DNA of 64,000 nt, from sequence record PX068456.1. One strand, written 5' to 3'. The stretch comes from a phage. The notes below the pieces were generated by a model. The model made no database searches, was not told the DNA's origin, and saw only the letters and a program-made list of their open reading frames with translations. A program made the translations under genes and the position numbers. Shown piece after piece: positions 1 through 14,064 of the stretch; position 1 is the first letter of the stretch, and each line of letters starts with the position of its first letter.

Positions 1-1403
1 AACGCGATTTTTAGCGCCCCCCGATTTCTGCCGACCGTCCCCCTCAAATATCAATGAGAATTATTATCATTTGCATTATCATTCAATGACTTATAAGACT
101 TTTGATTATTTTCTAAGCAAGAAAGGCATTACTCACAACAAAACAGATAAATTCTAAGCAAATCAATGGCTTGGCAAGTCTAAACATCTATATACACCTT
201 GCCAAATGAAATGATCCTGCGTGAAATAGTGCCACCCGTGGAAGATAGCTGATAATGATTATCATTTGCATACTTTCTATACTATAAAACGCCCTAAAAA
301 TCAAAATAATTCTGATTTATTGCGCTTTTAAGAAAGTAGGCTCAACAAATAAGGAGGTACATTGCAACAAATAGGGATATTATTGGGGCAATAGTATGAA
401 AAACCATCTATTCATATATAAATAATTTTGCGCAATAGTGTTAATATTTTTCTTGTCAAGAAAGATTTCTTTGTGTTCACATAGCGCCCCCTGGAAGGTG
501 GCGCATTATGATCATCAGGGTCATTATTCACTATGTTTATTATTGGATAGCTTATATTATAGCCAATGTTCCAAACATTAGCTAATAATAACGCACCGCA
601 ACAATGTAAGGGAATACAATATACCATGTATATTGTTGCGCTTGCAGTTGTTGCAAGCTACATAAGCACAAATAATAACTATCGGTGATGGTTATTATGT
701 GGGGTGTGTAGTTGCGTTATTATTAGCCGCCTATGTGTCCGGCATAGGCTGCTAATGATACGCTTGCGAATTATATTTCTTGTTATAGTTATTGTATGAA
801 ATGATTACGGTATGAAATGATTACTTAGGTAATAGATAGGAAGGTAAAGGTTAGATCATAAATAGATAGGATATGAATTATTTAGTAATGTTACTAACGA
901 TTTAATAGTTACTTTGTGCAATAATTCAATAGATTATAGTTATAGTTTTAAAGGTTAGATAGATTATATTTAGCTTAGTAATGATTTATATTAGTTATTG
1001 TTGTTTAATATAAGGTTATCAATGAGATAGTAACAGTAAGTTATAAATAAAAGTAAGATAATTAGTTTTAATTTAGTTAGATAACTTATTATTTTATAGG
1101 TTAGATGGTCATAAGTTAAGAATGATTATCATTATTGCATTATGCAGTTTATTGCATAAATAATCAGCTATAAATAAGAATGATTATCATTTAAGAGGAA
1201 AGACAAGAAAAAGGCTGTTTTTGCCAGATAGTTGCATGGAGAAATTAAAAATAAGCGGTCTAAAACACGTTGTAAGCGCCTTATGATCTTCATGGTATGG
1301 TTGTTCATCTGCTCCTTGATTAGCTCGATACCGCGATCTATTCACTTTTTTCGGTGAACGTTTTTGATAGGTAAAAGCTATCATCTTTATTGAGGTAAAA
1401 AGA

Positions 1404-9323: not shown

Positions 9324-9686
9324 TTATTCGTAAATTTTACCGCTTTCTACCCATACCATAACACGGCGCATGTTATCCCATGCATCTTGTCGCAGATTTA
9401 AGGCATGCAATTCTTCCGTGGTGCTCATACCTGGAACGGGCTTGCTATATGTTACAAAGAGATCGCCAGCATATTCATAAGCCAGGGTAAGATCACATTG
9501 AATCATCTTTTTAATCATAGCATCAAGCATCATATTAGCGGCATGTTGATCACGTTTCAGCGGTAACGTTGCGATCTGTGTGCGATAGCTTTCGATCCGT
9601 GCATCCACTGCATCACGCGAAAGGTTTTTCACGTCATCGCGGAAAGATACCAGGTTTAACATGATAGTATTGATTTGCTTGCTCAT
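9324..9686 (-). CDS. hypothetical protein (120 aa)
   Basis: ORF track; RBS AAAGAAAGGG; cassette 9709-9769. Confidence 0.5.
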   Translation of the reverse strand: MSKQINTIMLNLVSFRDDVKNLSRDAVDARIESYRTQIATLPLKRDQHAANMMLDAMIKKMIQCDLTLAYEYAGDLFVTYSKPVPGMSTTEELHALNLRQDAWDNMRRVMVWVESGKIYE

Positions 9687-9708
9687 TGTGTTACCCTTTC
9701 TTTGTTTT

Positions 9709-9769
9709 GGCGGGAAACCATTTCCCCGCCTTATGGAGTATATATTACCAAATTATTTTTCAGTGTCAA
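9709..9769 (-). promoter_or_regulatory. promoter + stem-loop cassette (hairpin GGCGGGAAACCATTTCCCCGCC)
   Basis: TTGACA at 9764-9769 (minus). Confidence 0.5.
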
Positions 9770-9772
9770 GAC

Positions 9773-10045
9773 TTAAAGCAAAAACGCTACATCTTGCGCT
9801 TTTAGTGTAGTGTCGATCATTTTCGGGCTTTTATAATCCACAAATCGCGCGGTTTTTTCAATAGCGAAACCGAGATAATCTTGTTTATTGAAATTACATT
9901 CTTTTTTAAACGTTTCCCGTGCCACTGTGATCGCTGCGTCCAGGGATAAACGTCCATCAATATTGATGTTAGCGAAAGATCCGCCACCGCGCATAGGTTT
10001 ACCAGTGATGCCAGCTACGATCATTGATGCGCTATATGATGCCAT
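9773..10045 (-). CDS. hypothetical protein (90 aa)
   Basis: ORF track; RBS AAGAGAGAAATAATC; cassette 10068-10128. Confidence 0.5.
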   Translation of the reverse strand: MASYSASMIVAGITGKPMRGGGSFANINIDGRLSLDAAITVARETFKKECNFNKQDYLGFAIEKTARFVDYKSPKMIDTTLKAQDVAFLL

Positions 10046-10067
10046 GATTATTTCTCTCTTCTGTTAT

Positions 10068-10128
10068 GAGCGGCACTATTGCCGCCCCTCGACAAGATGA
10101 ATACTACGCTACCAGGTGAGGAACGTCA
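10068..10128 (-). promoter_or_regulatory. promoter + stem-loop cassette (TTGACG, hairpin AGCGGCActattGCCGC)
   Basis: minus-strand reading; first cassette of the leftward array. Confidence 0.45.
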
Positions 10129-10240
10129 ACCATTTTTTTAATCTTTTTTTCATTTCTTTTTTGCTTGCTATCTATAAAGGAAACGGCTATTATCTTTCTA
10201 CCGCGCCAACCAGGGCGCACATCAAAGAAAGGGCGATACC

Positions 10241-10507
10241 ATGACAAATACTCCTTTACATCTCATGCACTCATTGGGCTGGCAAGGCGGCACGGTGCAC
10301 CAGGTAGCAAGCGCAACGGGCTTAAAGGTTGAAACCGTTCTCAACCTGGGCGATCATAAGGTGGAAGAAATAGAAAACTTTGATCCGTTCGCTGATGGTT
10401 ATCTATGGGCTTGCAGTGGCGGCGGGGAAAGCAAGATCCCGCCAGGGGCGCGGGGCGACATGTATTTTTGGTTAGGTGTCCTATCCTGGCAAGAAAACAA
10501 AAAATAA
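10241..10507 (+). CDS. hypothetical protein (88 aa) in GC-rich island
   Basis: ORF track; RBS AAAGAAAGGGCG; local GC visibly higher than flanks. Confidence 0.4.
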   Translation: MTNTPLHLMHSLGWQGGTVHQVASATGLKVETVLNLGDHKVEEIENFDPFADGYLWACSGGGESKIPPGARGDMYFWLGVLSWQENKK

Positions 10508-10508
10508 T

Positions 10509-10538
10509 CTTGACAAGCCCAGGGATCGGGCTTATACT
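10509..10538 (+). promoter_or_regulatory. sigma70-like promoter (TTGACA-18-TATACT) with no ORF downstream
   Basis: hexamers read directly; downstream ~150 nt GC-rich and lacks an ATG-initiated ORF. Confidence 0.4.
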
Positions 10539-10759
10539 GTTTTACATACAGAAGAGGAAACGCCACCCCCACGGCGTAAAGGCGGGGCTAACATACCAGG
10601 GGGCACTGGTTGGAAGGTTGATCGCCGGTAGCTCGTCCAAAATAAATTTGTAAAGAAATGTAAAGATAAAAATAATCGCTTGCTTTTGTTGTTGGTTATG
10701 CTATTCTTATTGTATGGCGAGGGGACACGGGAGCGCGAGACAAACACCGCCCCTGCGCG

Positions 10760-10885
10760 TTATTCTGTAAATGAGAAAAATTCTCATTTGCTAATGATTC
10801 TCATTCTCTTAGTGAGAATGCTTATCATTTACATAATTAAATGATAATGATTCTCATTTACAAATGAGAATGATTATCATACGCA
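10760..10885. repeat. cluster of Fur-box-like palindromes (AATGAT-T-ATCATT / ATGAGAAT..ATTCTCAT)
   Basis: at least four overlapping copies; related copies at 56-92, 250-275, 1118-1192. Confidence 0.45.
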
Positions 10886-10904
10886 TACCCATAAAAACAC
10901 GAAA

Positions 10905-11104
10905 TTGAACTTTTCATTTTTGATTTTTCTACGGAAAAAGGCAAAAAAACTTTAAATAAACTGGGGAATTTTTAAAAAATTGAAGTTTTCATTTTCAAAA
11001 TCTGGATAGAAATACATACAAAAACTTTAAATAATTTTGACCAAACTTGAACTTTTCATTTTCAAAATTTGTATCCAAAAATCTGTAAAAACTTTAAATA
11101 ATTT
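10905..11104. repeat. three ~60-65 bp direct repeats (TTGAACTTTTCATTTTCAAAAT ... AAAAACTTTAAATAA)
   Basis: units at about 10905-10960, 10980-11036, 11047-11104 in an AT-rich non-coding stretch. Confidence 0.55.
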
Positions 11105-11320
11105 TGTCCTTTTTATAAAAATGATTTTACTGTTCTGTTATAAATAGTAGTTAAGAGATAGTATGCCTTTTAAAAACCAGATATCATAATCCAACAAACA
11201 AATTAAATAATTTATTAACAGAGTACAAAATAATATTTACTCTGAATATATTATTCAGAGGGTGAATTTCCGTACATGAAACCCACACCCCTTTTTATAA
11301 AAATAAAAATTTTCAAAATA

Positions 11321-11872
11321 TCAGGAAATATCAGATTGTGTTTTTAGAAAAACAGCAAGGTCTGTATGCCATTTTCCTAAAAGATTTTGTCCTTTCCAAC
11401 AATCCTTATTTTCCACGTCCCGATCCCACATCCCCATTTTGATACCATAAATAGAATCATAGGGGCTTGCCTCTACGAACTCCTTATCTGCGTAAGCGAT
11501 AAGTTTATTTTTGAGATCTTCATTTTGTGTGTATTTAAGATACAAACCACGCTTGACAATCTTCTCCCGTAAAGAAGCCCAGGTATCTTCATCATAATCT
11601 TTAACTAATCTGCCTAGTCGCTTATAATATGCTTGTTCTTTTTCTCCTGTATATCTTAGATCTCCGGTTAAAATAGAAGATGCAATGTTGTAATCATAAA
11701 ACAAACATGCTTTTCTCCACATCATATATTGTTCCACACAAGTAAATTCAACAGAACTTGTAATAGAATTATTATACTTGGGAGCTAAAGGTTCAATAAA
11801 AGATGATAGATACCAGTTGCTAAATTCATCTTTTGCCGAGAAGAAGAACACATACTTATCAGTAATCCGCAT
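11321..11872 (-). CDS. NADAR (YbiA-like, DUF1768) domain protein
   Basis: motifs FFFS..EFSNW, EQYMMW, EASPYDSIYGIKMG and KGQNLLGK match YbiA/NADAR pattern by eye. Confidence 0.6.
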   Translation of the reverse strand: MRITDKYVFFFSAKDEFSNWYLSSFIEPLAPKYNNSITSSVEFTCVEQYMMWRKACLFYDYNIASSILTGDLRYTGEKEQAYYKRLGRLVKDYDEDTWASLREKIVKRGLYLKYTQNEDLKNKLIAYADKEFVEASPYDSIYGIKMGMWDRDVENKDCWKGQNLLGKWHTDLAVFLKTQSDIS

Positions 11873-12862
11873 TTACACCTCCTTATTGTATACTAACTTG
11901 CCACCATATTGTGTAATAATTTTTTGAAGATTTTCCAAATCAGAAACACTTACTGTTTCTGTATGACCGTCTTTCAACTCTCTTGCTGTTAAAATACCAG
12001 TTTTTAATTTTTTCTTTATAGCTCTTTCAGCAGCCTTACACTGTTTCACTGTGCTAAAATCATATAAACAAATACGTTCCATAAAAAACAGATTACGGCT
12101 ATTTTGAATGTTTAATCGCCTATCACTATCTTTAGCTATACCAAACTTAAGAGCAACTATAATATTATCATCCTTAACAATATTAATATATAACTGCTGC
12201 TGACTATGACCAGCACACATAGGACAACCTCGACCGAGGCTTAATAAATTATTAGCACTCCCTATCTGCTCACCATGCACAAGACAAAGATATTTAAACT
12301 TACCTATAGAAGAGGGTTTGGTAATCCAATCTACCCAGACATACCCTTTCCCTTCTACTTCCTTTTTTACCCTATAGGTGATCTGGTCTTCTGTATACCG
12401 ATAGTTCCCACAACGACACGGAATATACCCTCGTTTAAGGTTATCTCCTTCAGAGTAAAATTTACCATCACAAACACCTGCTTGAACATATTCATCATGA
12501 GAGCAAACAGGACATTCAACCATCCAGATAATATTCCTACATCCTTTACCCCGTGTTCCTGTGTTAGTGAAGATAGTGCCTTCCTTAAATTCCCCTGTAG
12601 AAAAGAAATCTGCAATATGTTGATCGTCGGACATTGTTTGTGACTTCCTTATATTCTTCCTCCTACATTGTGGACAACCGCTACCACATTTAAAACTGTT
12701 AATACTTGTAGTATCCCATTTATAACCACAATGGCACAACAAATCAAGTTTTGTGTGGACCCCTTTCCATTGTCCCGTCCATCCTAAGATTTGGATTTGC
12801 TTACTCTCTGCTATTGGTATACACTCTTCTTTATATTGTTCCCATGATTTTGGTGCTGCCAT
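11873..12862 (-). CDS. Cys-rich protein with three zinc-ribbon-like repeats and C-terminal T5orf172 (GIY-YIG-like) domain; putative nuclease/DNA-binding
   Basis: repeated C-x-C...CPxC modules; C-terminal KFGIAKDSDRRL resembles T5orf172 KIGxT..RR motif. Confidence 0.45.
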   Translation of the reverse strand: MAAPKSWEQYKEECIPIAESKQIQILGWTGQWKGVHTKLDLLCHCGYKWDTTSINSFKCGSGCPQCRRKNIRKSQTMSDDQHIADFFSTGEFKEGTIFTNTGTRGKGCRNIIWMVECPVCSHDEYVQAGVCDGKFYSEGDNLKRGYIPCRCGNYRYTEDQITYRVKKEVEGKGYVWVDWITKPSSIGKFKYLCLVHGEQIGSANNLLSLGRGCPMCAGHSQQQLYINIVKDDNIIVALKFGIAKDSDRRLNIQNSRNLFFMERICLYDFSTVKQCKAAERAIKKKLKTGILTARELKDGHTETVSVSDLENLQKIITQYGGKLVYNKEV

Positions 12863-12900
12863 CTACTACTCCTCTTATTAAATCTGGCATTAATGCAAGA

Positions 12901-12922
12901 AAACCCGCCGAAGCGGGTTTTT
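12901..12922. terminator. intrinsic terminator hairpin AAACCCGCcgaaGCGGGTTTTT
   Basis: GC stem with T-run; between minus genes. Confidence 0.5.
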
Positions 12923-12936
12923 ATTTGCTGGCTTAC

Positions 12937-14064
12937 TTAAAACACACTTGCCAAAGTTGCACCATTGGTGATAGTTGGTTCCAGAACAATACGGAAAGAA
13001 TCTTCTGGATCATCACTAAACACAACGATTTTACCGCCTGTGATAAGGTCTGCTTTCATTTTTGTCGCATTCAACGGAATTCGAGCATCGCCTTCATCAT
13101 CAAAAACCACGTAAGAGCTATTAGCAAGGGCTTCTTTAGAATCTGCATCACTTGGAGATGACAAGTACACGTCTAGTGTGCACGAGCCACCTAAAAAGAT
13201 TGCAGGTGTAAAGTTATGCCAACTAGATACCCAGCTAACTTTCTGAAGTTTCCCATTAATAACAACACTGCTGATATCCCATTTATTACCACCACCTAAA
13301 GAAACGCCCATCATAGAGATGCATTCTTTAAAGGATAAATCAGGGTAGAAATTAAGTTCTTCTACTATACCTTGGATCACATCAAAGGATAACTCTAAAC
13401 TTACATCCCAAAGCCTTTGAAAATTATCAAAGTGTGCTTTGTTATCCAGGTTTTTATCTAAATAGTCAATCATAGTTTCTAGTGAGATTTTATCATAATT
13501 AAAATTATAAAACACACGACTAGGACGATTTAGAAAGAATTCAGAGATAAAGCCACTGTTTTTAGTTAGAATAAACAGTTTATTACCACTGCCAGTACCA
13601 TCTAACAAAGTGAGAAGTGCTTCTTGATCTTGTTTCTTCTCATATACTTTATCAAACTCGTCAAAAATAATCACTGCTTTGTCGGTGATCTTGCTAATAA
13701 GTTCAATGAAATTAGCATCGCTGTAGGCTTGAGTAACCATAATAGTTGGAATACCTTCTTCTACAAGGTCACGACTAATGAGTTTGGCTAACATAGTTTT
13801 ACCACTACCCTTAGTTCCTGTCAGAAGCAAGCCTGTATTTTTACCTTGTGCACTCCGGCGATGGAATGTACGGATAACGTGATTTGCTCGTTTTTCTGTT
13901 TCACCATACAGAACATCCGGTACACCTGTCAGATTACCACGGCTTAAAAAATAATTGCCAAGGGGATCACGACTAACAGTATAGAATCCAGGTGGAAGAT
14001 AGTTAGATTCCACGCCCATGTCTTTATTTACACTTACAATATCACCATAAATCGTGTATTTCAT
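12937..14064 (-). CDS. AAA-family ATPase (paralogue of 28044..29204)
   Basis: Walker A GTKGSGKT, Walker B IIFDEFDK; N-terminal 200 aa align with 28044 ORF. Confidence 0.65.
   Translation of the reverse strand: MKYTIYGDIVSVNKDMGVESNYLPPGFYTVSRDPLGNYFLSRGNLTGVPDVLYGETEKRANHVIRTFHRRSAQGKNTGLLLTGTKGSGKTMLAKLISRDLVEEGIPTIMVTQAYSDANFIELISKITDKAVIIFDEFDKVYEKKQDQEALLTLLDGTGSGNKLFILTKNSGFISEFFLNRPSRVFYNFNYDKISLETMIDYLDKNLDNKAHFDNFQRLWDVSLELSFDVIQGIVEELNFYPDLSFKECISMMGVSLGGGNKWDISSVVINGKLQKVSWVSSWHNFTPAIFLGGSCTLDVYLSSPSDADSKEALANSSYVVFDDEGDARIPLNATKMKADLITGGKIVVFSDDPEDSFRIVLEPTITNGATLASVF

Follow-up and report, generated by a model that had tools for sequence, protein, structure and literature searches.

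An 813 bp non-coding island near the left end of a phi92-like phage genome carries three tandem direct repeats which, on comparison with related phages, prove to be a selected cis-acting DNA element composed of six putative recognition blocks, arranged as three pairs of a left (L) and a right (R) block. The sequence analysed here (the window) is a single stretch of 64,000 nt (record PX068456.1), in which the array is defined as positions 10901–11104 and comprises three direct repeats of approximately 70 bp. Its role may be that of a replication origin or that of a regulatory site, with an origin as the tentative leading guess.

Sequence similarity identifies the window as the leftmost 64 kb of a phi92-like genome, of the genus Justusliebigvirus. 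Among the 142 phage records matched in a megablast search, the best matches of positions 9500–13500 were Escherichia coli myoviruses of the genus Justusliebigvirus (phi92-like, Stephanstirmvirinae), at 96–99% identity. Positions 1–2556 align with positions 1–2600 of phage BME3, and the window and the BME3 record start at the same base. As the start of the BME3 record is a PhageTerm-defined end with a 342 bp direct terminal repeat (PMC12210895), window coordinates represent distances from the physical left end. The Klebsiella phage FKP3 was oriented independently by PhageTerm and has a 317 bp repeat (PMC11663894); its start is homologous to that of BME3 and of the window to within about 13 bp. 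The array lies 10.9–12.0 kb from the left end.

The features of the region are collected in the table. As well as the array, several elements at the left end of the genome merit description. Near-consensus Fur boxes occur at 54–76 and 250–266 (in the 342 bp terminal repeat), 1118–1133 and 1176–1191, and Fur-like boxes bracket the early gene block on both sides. The lowest stability of any 200 bp in the whole genome is that of the short repeats (GGTTAGAT/TAGATAGG) at 780–1110. The terminal region of BME3 (L006 46169–47371 and L004 1–342) contains an 861 bp tandem duplication with Fur-like boxes (146221, 147082 and position 53), the terminal sequence of FKP3 is repeated at about 488, and the ends of both genomes are repeat-rich. 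Between 1500 and 10250, on the minus strand, nearly every small early gene has a cassette of its own, consisting of a perfect TTGACA, a 16–17 bp spacer, a −10 element, a hairpin of the GGCGGGAAATGGTTTCCCGCC type and an AAAGAGA ribosome site; these cassettes resemble the promoter-early stem-loop cassettes of T4-type phages.

Table. Features of the left end of the window and of the array-bearing island
Feature	Position	Strand or direction	Remarks
AT-rich non-coding region with Fur-like boxes	1–1400		Left end
Small leftward genes	about 9 kb	leftward	Nearly each with its own perfect TTGACA promoter, then a conserved GC hairpin
88 aa protein gene	10241–10507	rightward	One small rightward gene before the island
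Hairpin and TTGACA-17-TATACT consensus promoter	10510–10538	rightward	Left part of the island, followed by a GC-rich segment
Second promoter-like site, then second GC-rich segment			Between the first GC-rich segment and the Fur-box-like cluster
Fur-box-like palindrome cluster	10762–10890	.	Inverted and direct repeats; immediately left of the array
Unit 1 L block (GAAATTGAACTTTTCATTTTTGATTTT)	10901–10927	+	46 bp upstream of R1; gapless alignment with its counterparts (16 units, six lineages)
Unit 1 R block (AAAAAAACTTTAAATAA)	10943–10959	+	Exact 14-mer common to the three units
Unit 2 L block (AAATTGAAGTTTTCATTTTCAAAAT)	10976–11001	+	Repeat search, L 22-mer matches, alignment
Unit 2 R block (ACAAAAACTTTAAATAAT)	11018–11035	+	Repeat search, exact 14-mer, alignment
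Unit 3 L block (AAACTTGAACTTTTCATTTTCAAAAT)	11043–11068	+	Repeat search, L 22-mer matches, alignment
Unit 3 R block (GTAAAAACTTTAAATAAT)	11085–11102	+	Repeat search, exact 14-mer, alignment
Lineage-specific, very AT-rich spacer right of the array	11105–11239	.	About 135 bp
9-3-9 hairpin CTCTGAATA-TAT-TATTCAGAG	11240–11260	-	Right end of the AT-rich spacer

To the left of the array, the island is entered through the gene for the 88 aa protein, which belongs to phrog_19316 and has an invariant N-terminal motif (LGWQGGTVHQV..TGL) and a C-terminal half that exists in several unrelated versions. The first GC-rich segment (10545–10640), downstream of the TTGACA-17-TATACT promoter, is conserved across both subfamilies considered here and looks like a structured small RNA with a pseudoknot: the proposed 11 pairs were formed in 91.5% of cells, compared with 24–42% in slid controls, compensatory changes were seen in three pairs, and a search of Rfam with this segment gave no match. 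A promoter-like site and GC-rich hairpin (GGCGAGGGGACACGGG...CCGCCCCTGCGCG) at 10680–10760 are conserved in all lineages, including a Vibrio phage, and always end in YATTCYG.AAATG, running into the first Fur-like box. The palindromes that follow resemble the Fur-box consensus, and we take them to be candidate Fur boxes. This cluster precedes the array in every lineage examined and is part of the conserved island, separate from the array itself. Similar Fur-like clusters occur in phage Spc35 (1456–1610 of L140) and in the Vibrio phage (2160–2230 of L139), the likeness in the latter being one of architecture.

On the right, the spacer that follows the array is not alignable between genera. The initial annotation had correctly placed the repeats to the right of the Fur-box-like cluster, but had them next to the start of the leftward module; they in fact abut its 3′ end. 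The leftward operon (NADAR, endonuclease and AAA ATPase genes) ends at the right of the island, with the NADAR stop codon at 11321. A palindrome reported to follow the array is also present, although its arms are separated by three rather than four nucleotides. It folds best on the minus strand (−14.6 kcal/mol, z = −3.6) and is followed there by a U-rich tail, so it is probably the intrinsic terminator of the NADAR/endonuclease/ATPase operon; in Phapecoctavirus genomes, the corresponding site is occupied by a strong bidirectional terminator. A direct repeat, AAATATCA(GG)AAATATCA, at 11316–11334 overlaps the NADAR stop codon; every lineage keeps this repeat where the island ends on the right, even when the array is of the second type described below or the neighbouring gene is a different one. 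Further right, the gene for a CapR-domain/T5orf172 endonuclease (11873–12862) encodes 329 aa here, 396 aa in phi92 and 465 aa in phage alia, and is replaced in Tr1 and KP2025; this variation in length and presence among close relatives suggests a mobile, homing-endonuclease-like gene.

A repeat search located three direct copies at 10902–10980, 10977–11055 and 11044–11122, with start-to-start distances of 75 and 67 bp, and Tandem Repeats Finder reported a period of 67 for the two best copies (score 185), bearing out the repeats that had been noticed by inspection. The shared blocks hold equally well. Each unit consists of an L block and an R block (AAAAACTTTAAATAA) with a spacer between them that is not conserved; the R 14-mer AAAACTTTAAATAA has three exact copies, all in the array, and the L 22-mer TTGAACTTTTCATTTTCAAAAT has two matches with up to three mismatches, where 0.01 would be expected. 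The distance from L core to R core is 46 bp in all units, whilst the gaps from R to the next L are 29 and 21 bp, and the R blocks are spaced at 75 bp (R1–R2) and 67 bp (R2–R3), or 142 bp overall. As the initial annotation stated, no ORF crosses the repeats: none of at least 40 aa spans 10845–11320.

These sequences are a property of this locus. The R core CTTTAAATAA has three occurrences in the 147 kb BME3 genome, all of them in the array, compared with 1.6 expected; within the window, the isolated 11-mer core was found eight times, three of these in the array, compared with 6.7 expected; and TTTAAATAA occurs nine times in the BME3 genome, compared with 8.4 expected. The island is single-copy in all 128 records, the longest assemblies included. 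An apparent second genomic copy, seen as two places per record in BLAST output, was traced by local BLAST to out-of-register self-alignment of the array. The DNA at and beyond the right end of the array (11054–11253) ranks second in the genome for low stability among 200 bp stretches, at about 4 SD from the mean.

We compared the island with those of Citrobacter phage Tr1, Klebsiella phages KP2025 and FKP3, phAPEC8-type phages and phiWec190, all with what we call type I arrays. The order of elements was identical and three units were present in each of these lineages, although the middle unit is degenerate in Phapecoctavirus. When anchored on the R core, all 16 units from six lineages align gaplessly from L to R, with the distance of 46 bp maintained. 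Identity is 0.76–0.86 in the L block and 0.83–0.86 in the R block, compared with a near-random 0.42–0.47 in the spacers. L blocks are more alike within a genome (0.86) than between same-position units of different genomes (0.76), which indicates, from the pattern of identities, that they undergo concerted evolution. The L and R cores of phAPEC8 share one sequence, AAACTTTAAAT, which means that each unit holds two related sub-sites. Scanning IMG/VR for two R cores at the array spacing returned almost exclusively chance tandem repeats in AT-rich DNA, with one true relative, and a stricter pattern found two. In the GenBank records of phages alia and inny, the array is present as an unlabelled repeat_region.

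Arrays of a second type were reached via the flanking 88 aa protein, first in metagenome contigs and then by a search of the phage collection. The island recurs in 86 records of the Vequintavirinae, Mydovirus and Certrevirus among them, with its elements in the same order: the 88 aa protein, two GC-rich segments, the Fur-like cluster and three bipartite direct units. The blocks of these type II arrays (AATACGAT, GATCGAGAAC and GATCGAGA(AC)) are GATC-rich and unrelated in sequence to those of type I; their sub-sites lie an invariant 25 bp apart, and the arrays contain 5–7 GATC sites per 250 bp. A third type of repeat, within an island of this same order, occurs in a Vibrio phage. AT-richness of the array and its flank is not conserved across lineages (33–51% GC): the arrays of CR3 and L151 have 51% GC, and the right flanks of other lineages 33–43%. 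Two or three copies of TTTGAGATAA, an extended −10-like sequence, lie just to the right of the arrays in Phapecoctavirus (L011, L134 and L137) and Mydovirus (L162 and L166), and the degenerate middle R block of Phapecoctavirus is this same sequence.

The geometry of the array is more rigid than its individual periods. The two periods are 75+67, 76+67 or 75+66 bp in type I arrays, 67+74 bp in the type II arrays of Mydovirus and 63–64+78 bp in those of CR3, L150 and L151, yet the distance from first to third unit is 141–143 bp in all ten complete arrays (141–142 bp in type II). Over these ten, which represent about six independent lineage groups and three partition classes, the span has an SD of 0.67 bp, whereas the two periods have an SD of 5 bp and a correlation of −0.99; the middle unit slides while the outer units keep their span. 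On sequence comparison, the type of array is set by the phage backbone, not by the neighbouring DNA: Stephanstirmvirinae have type I and Vequintavirinae type II. Between L149 (type II) and phi1_175008 (type I), identity is 92% over the 88 aa gene, both GC-rich segments and the Fur cluster, and this similarity stops exactly at the start of the array, where the two are unrelated. Klebsiella phages are found with either array type, so a single host factor cannot explain both.

Conserved blocks, free spacers, rigid geometry, concerted evolution, uniqueness in the genome and backbone-linked specificity together lead us to predict, with considerable confidence, that a phage-encoded, sequence-specific DNA-binding factor reads the array and builds one complex of about 200 bp on it. 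The active form of the array is duplex DNA rather than a hairpin or folded RNA: RNAalifold found no conserved pairs in the units, single-sequence folds equalled those of shuffled sequences (z = −0.3 and −0.5), and the only Rfam hits were chance miRNA-like ones on palindromes. Phasing of A/T tracts gave an unconvincing period-11 peak (p = 0.012 before correction for six periods). The genes next to the array did not provide a reader. Alleles of the 88 aa protein are exchanged between subfamilies (that of L149 is 98% identical to that of phi1_175008, 92% to that of SF1-1 and about 40% to that of the window); as a binder this protein was rejected, since the same allele (98% identity) stands beside type I and type II arrays and KP2025 lacks it. 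It had no match in Pfam or the PDB, and a single-sequence AlphaFold model was unusable (pLDDT 34). The right-hand neighbour may be NADAR, DUF6939 or an unrelated ORF, irrespective of the array type, and was set aside as a trans factor, whilst the AAA ATPase, considered as an initiator, is a classical AAA protein of the p97/Cdc48-like kind. Searches of the literature found no description of the array element, and nothing relevant on transcript maps, origins or such an array for Phapecoctavirus, Justusliebigvirus or the Vequintavirinae.

Our leading guess, which we offer tentatively, is that the array complex marks a site of replication initiation. Under this model, the predicted backbone-encoded factor would occupy the blocks to form a single nucleoprotein complex of about 200 bp with the outer units in register, the complex would mark the site of initiation, rightward sigma-70-type promoters in the island would transcribe into the array, and this transcription could be gated by host Fur at the neighbouring box cluster. 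The array does consist of repeated copies, all in one direction, of a recognition sequence confined to this locus, and this iteron-like logic is accompanied by unstable DNA, a primase-helicase, rightward promoters and, in type II arrays, an abundance of GATC. The primase-helicase is of the T7 gp4 type (E = 1e-27). Helicases of this type go with transcription-primed origins that need no initiator, and origins of the T7 and T4 types depend on transcription into easily melted DNA and not on a DnaA-like initiator. Directly upstream of the Mydovirus array, a TTGACT-17-GATACT promoter points into it.

Other observations speak against an origin, and the initial annotation's description of the repeats as iteron-like therefore stands only in part: the array is, to judge from its conservation, a selected, genome-unique set of cis-acting recognition blocks, but the hallmarks of an origin for which we looked were absent or not conserved. 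No initiator (Rep) gene adjacent to the repeats and co-varying with them was found among the neighbouring genes. DnaA-like sites (five, compared with 3.1 expected) and IHF-like sites (four, compared with 2.7 expected, both with up to one mismatch) were at chance level, and none was conserved. The array shows no change in cumulative GC skew, which turns solely at switches in the direction of transcription and has its minimum at 16.6 kb; being dominated by transcription direction, it is uninformative about an origin. A period of approximately 70 bp is unusual for iterons. On composition alone, a second and less stable non-coding region at 780–1100 is just as good a candidate for the origin. The analogous region of T5-like phages, with a Fur-like cluster and direct repeats, has been stated not to be the origin (Davison, 10.1101/866236).

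Known binding-site arrays help to place the element, which appears to resemble several of them (iterons and cosB-like sites) but to fit none on the defining features tested. Iteron origins such as ori-lambda, P1 oriR and those of R6K and pSC101 share with it locus-unique direct repeats in the same orientation, concerted blocks, modular exchange of specificity among related genomes, neighbouring AT-rich DNA (in this phage) and clustering of GATC (in type II). They differ in having iterons of 19–22 bp with a period of about 22 bp, as opposed to bipartite units of about 70 bp, and the array has no adjacent initiator gene, DnaA sites or IHF sites, nor is its AT-rich flank conserved. Transcription-primed origins include the primary origin of T7, which consists of two tandem promoters and an AT-rich region, and oriF, oriG and oriE of T4. 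The gp4-type primase-helicase and the succession of promoters, repeats and very unstable DNA are shared with these, whereas the array units are not recognizable phage promoters and the unstable flank is specific to the genus.

Less likely than an origin, in our estimation, is a function in the control of transcription, in which the units would act either as three tandem activator-dependent rightward promoters (R as a −10-like element and L as an activator or UP site about 46 bp away) or as an operator or insulator separating the leftward operon that ends at 11321 from the leftward early module. R ends in AATAAT, drift has turned the middle R of Phapecoctavirus into TTTGAGATAAT or TTTTAAGATAAT (also given as TGAGATAAT), which is extended −10-like, the units are about the size of a promoter, and many have a G-rich patch 5–8 nt after R. 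The spacing of the type II sub-sites is near that of −35 and −10 elements, with a AAAAATTTTTT block 24 bp further upstream in Mydovirus, and the bidirectional terminator of Phapecoctavirus lies downstream as if rightward transcripts exist. A promoter scan also called unit 2, as TAGAAA-17-AATAAT with 9 of 12 matches. However, nine matches is the bare threshold of that scan (15 sites in the region, compared with 7.5 expected), units 1 and 3 were not called, and no unit has a −35 element, whereas the real early promoters of this phage all have a perfect TTGACA and score 10–12 of 12. Two lineages have AATAAA in unit 1, the 16 bp over which R is conserved greatly exceed the requirement of sigma-70, the type II blocks AATACGAT and GATCGAGAAC are not sigma-70-like, no gene or conserved sequence lies downstream of the array, and independent promoters would not be expected to hold a 142 bp span constant while the middle unit slides. 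The proposal of a promoter array made in the initial annotation is weakened by units that lack TTGACA, of which one in three reaches the scan threshold, and by type II equivalents that are not −10-like; that of operator sites is weakened by the confinement of the motif to the array in BME3 and its chance frequency elsewhere, as an operator regulon would need isolated copies. A dispersed phage promoter consensus was rejected on the same genome-wide counts of CTTTAAATAA and TTTAAATAA, and readings by eye as sigma-E, sigma-28, CRP, FNR, OmpR or CpxR sites gave partial matches in one lineage only, none of them conserved, with −10 partners absent. The T7 A1, A2 and A3 early promoters, which are consensus sigma-70 promoters about 125 bp apart that drive genes, are likewise three same-facing units near the left end, but the array units have neither a −35 element nor a downstream gene. 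The rightward promoters upstream in the island could also yield a non-coding RNA, AU-rich and repetitive, that serves as a decoy or sponge, perhaps by mimicking a ToxI-like antitoxin, and the rV5-like phage phiTE does express a repeat RNA (pseudo-ToxI) that neutralizes ToxN (PMC3475682). This seems very improbable for the array: the phiTE pseudo-ToxI lies at a different locus, between tRNA genes and a structural gene, the array units are unequal (75 and 67 bp) with two unequal internal gaps, unlike antitoxin repeats, and the folding and Rfam results described above are negative. Neither the equal pseudoknot repeats of about 34–45 nt that mark type III antitoxins nor the phiTE escape locus was found in the array.

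Position within the genome invites a further comparison, with the DNA-entry region of phage T5. The array and Fur-like cluster might form a boundary or DNA-entry checkpoint at the inner edge of the first approximately 8% of the genome to enter, like T5 Repeat Region 3, an untranslated region that is a candidate injection-stop region (Davison, 10.1101/866236); the shear point of T5 first-step-transfer DNA maps to Davison's DRE/palindrome region (10.1101/866236). The window starts at a PhageTerm-defined left end common to BME3 and FKP3, the array lies at 7.5–8.2% of the genome and T5 first-step-transfer DNA makes up 7.9%, and the leftmost region consists of small genes that each have their own strong sigma-70 promoter. 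The Fur-like cluster also has BLAST matches in T5-like phages at about 9–10 kb, in or next to the left terminal repeat and followed by eight or nine direct repeats. Repeat Region 3 resembles the island in being non-coding, about 8% from the left end, and in the order of Fur-like cluster and direct repeats, but differs from it in having paired DnaA boxes, eight or nine copies of an unrelated 14-mer (TGTGCAAATCCGAC) and a position at the edge of a 10 kb terminal repeat (10.1101/866236), whereas the island has three bipartite units, no DnaA-box pairs, a terminal repeat of about 0.3 kb (317–342 bp) and a single copy in every record. The likeness of the clusters may reflect a shared Fur-box consensus only, and the T5 analysis makes no mention of Fur boxes (10.1101/866236). 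PhiTE, a member of the Vequintavirinae, is reported to be circularly permuted (PMC3475682), which would make a checkpoint at a fixed distance impossible there, yet its subfamily keeps the array; we regard the checkpoint as improbable. A Fur-gated nucleoprotein switch, differing in sequence from group to group, might be common to rV5-like, phi92-like, possibly T5-like and some Vibrio phages, which we think rather doubtful; Fur at the palindromes would then govern either transcription into the three-unit array or access to it. If true, Fur gating would make an early step, either replication initiation or the completion of genome entry at the approximately 8% boundary, depend on host iron status. 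A set of three repeated sites within about 200 bp also resembles recognition regions of the terminase small subunit, and the type II blocks hold GATC, as does P1 pac. The lambda cosB sites (R3-R2-R1) and P1 pac are sets of a few repeated protein-binding sites over 120–160 bp that form one complex. A packaging site of the pac or cos type, or a terminal-repeat boundary, is nevertheless highly improbable: PhageTerm, applied independently to two genomes, located short direct terminal repeats about 11–12 kb to the left, at homologous sites, so that, unlike in these terminase recognition regions, the physical ends are about 11 kb away. The single copy of the island in all 128 records tells against this reading too, and on the same ground a long collapsed terminal repeat containing the island was rejected. 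Lastly, tandem duplications are common in AT-rich non-coding DNA, but there is hardly any likelihood that the array is a functionless recent duplication in an AT-rich spacer, given blocks that are conserved beside randomized spacers, and a three-unit geometry that persists even where identity between lineages drops to about 70% in this region, and also in a second subfamily whose array sequence is unrelated.

Overall, our work describes a defined cis-element that is present in well over 200 sequenced genomes. The rV5-like and phi92-like myoviruses are widely used as therapeutic and model coliphages. The anatomy of the array, with three bipartite units, a rigid 142 bp span and two unrelated specificity types that follow the backbone, gives a handle on the protein that reads it and allows its role as an origin to be tested. 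The association with a Fur-box cluster and the parallel with the T5 injection-stop region suggest a link between iron sensing and an early phage decision. If the array is essential, it would be a site to avoid or to exploit in the engineering of these phages.
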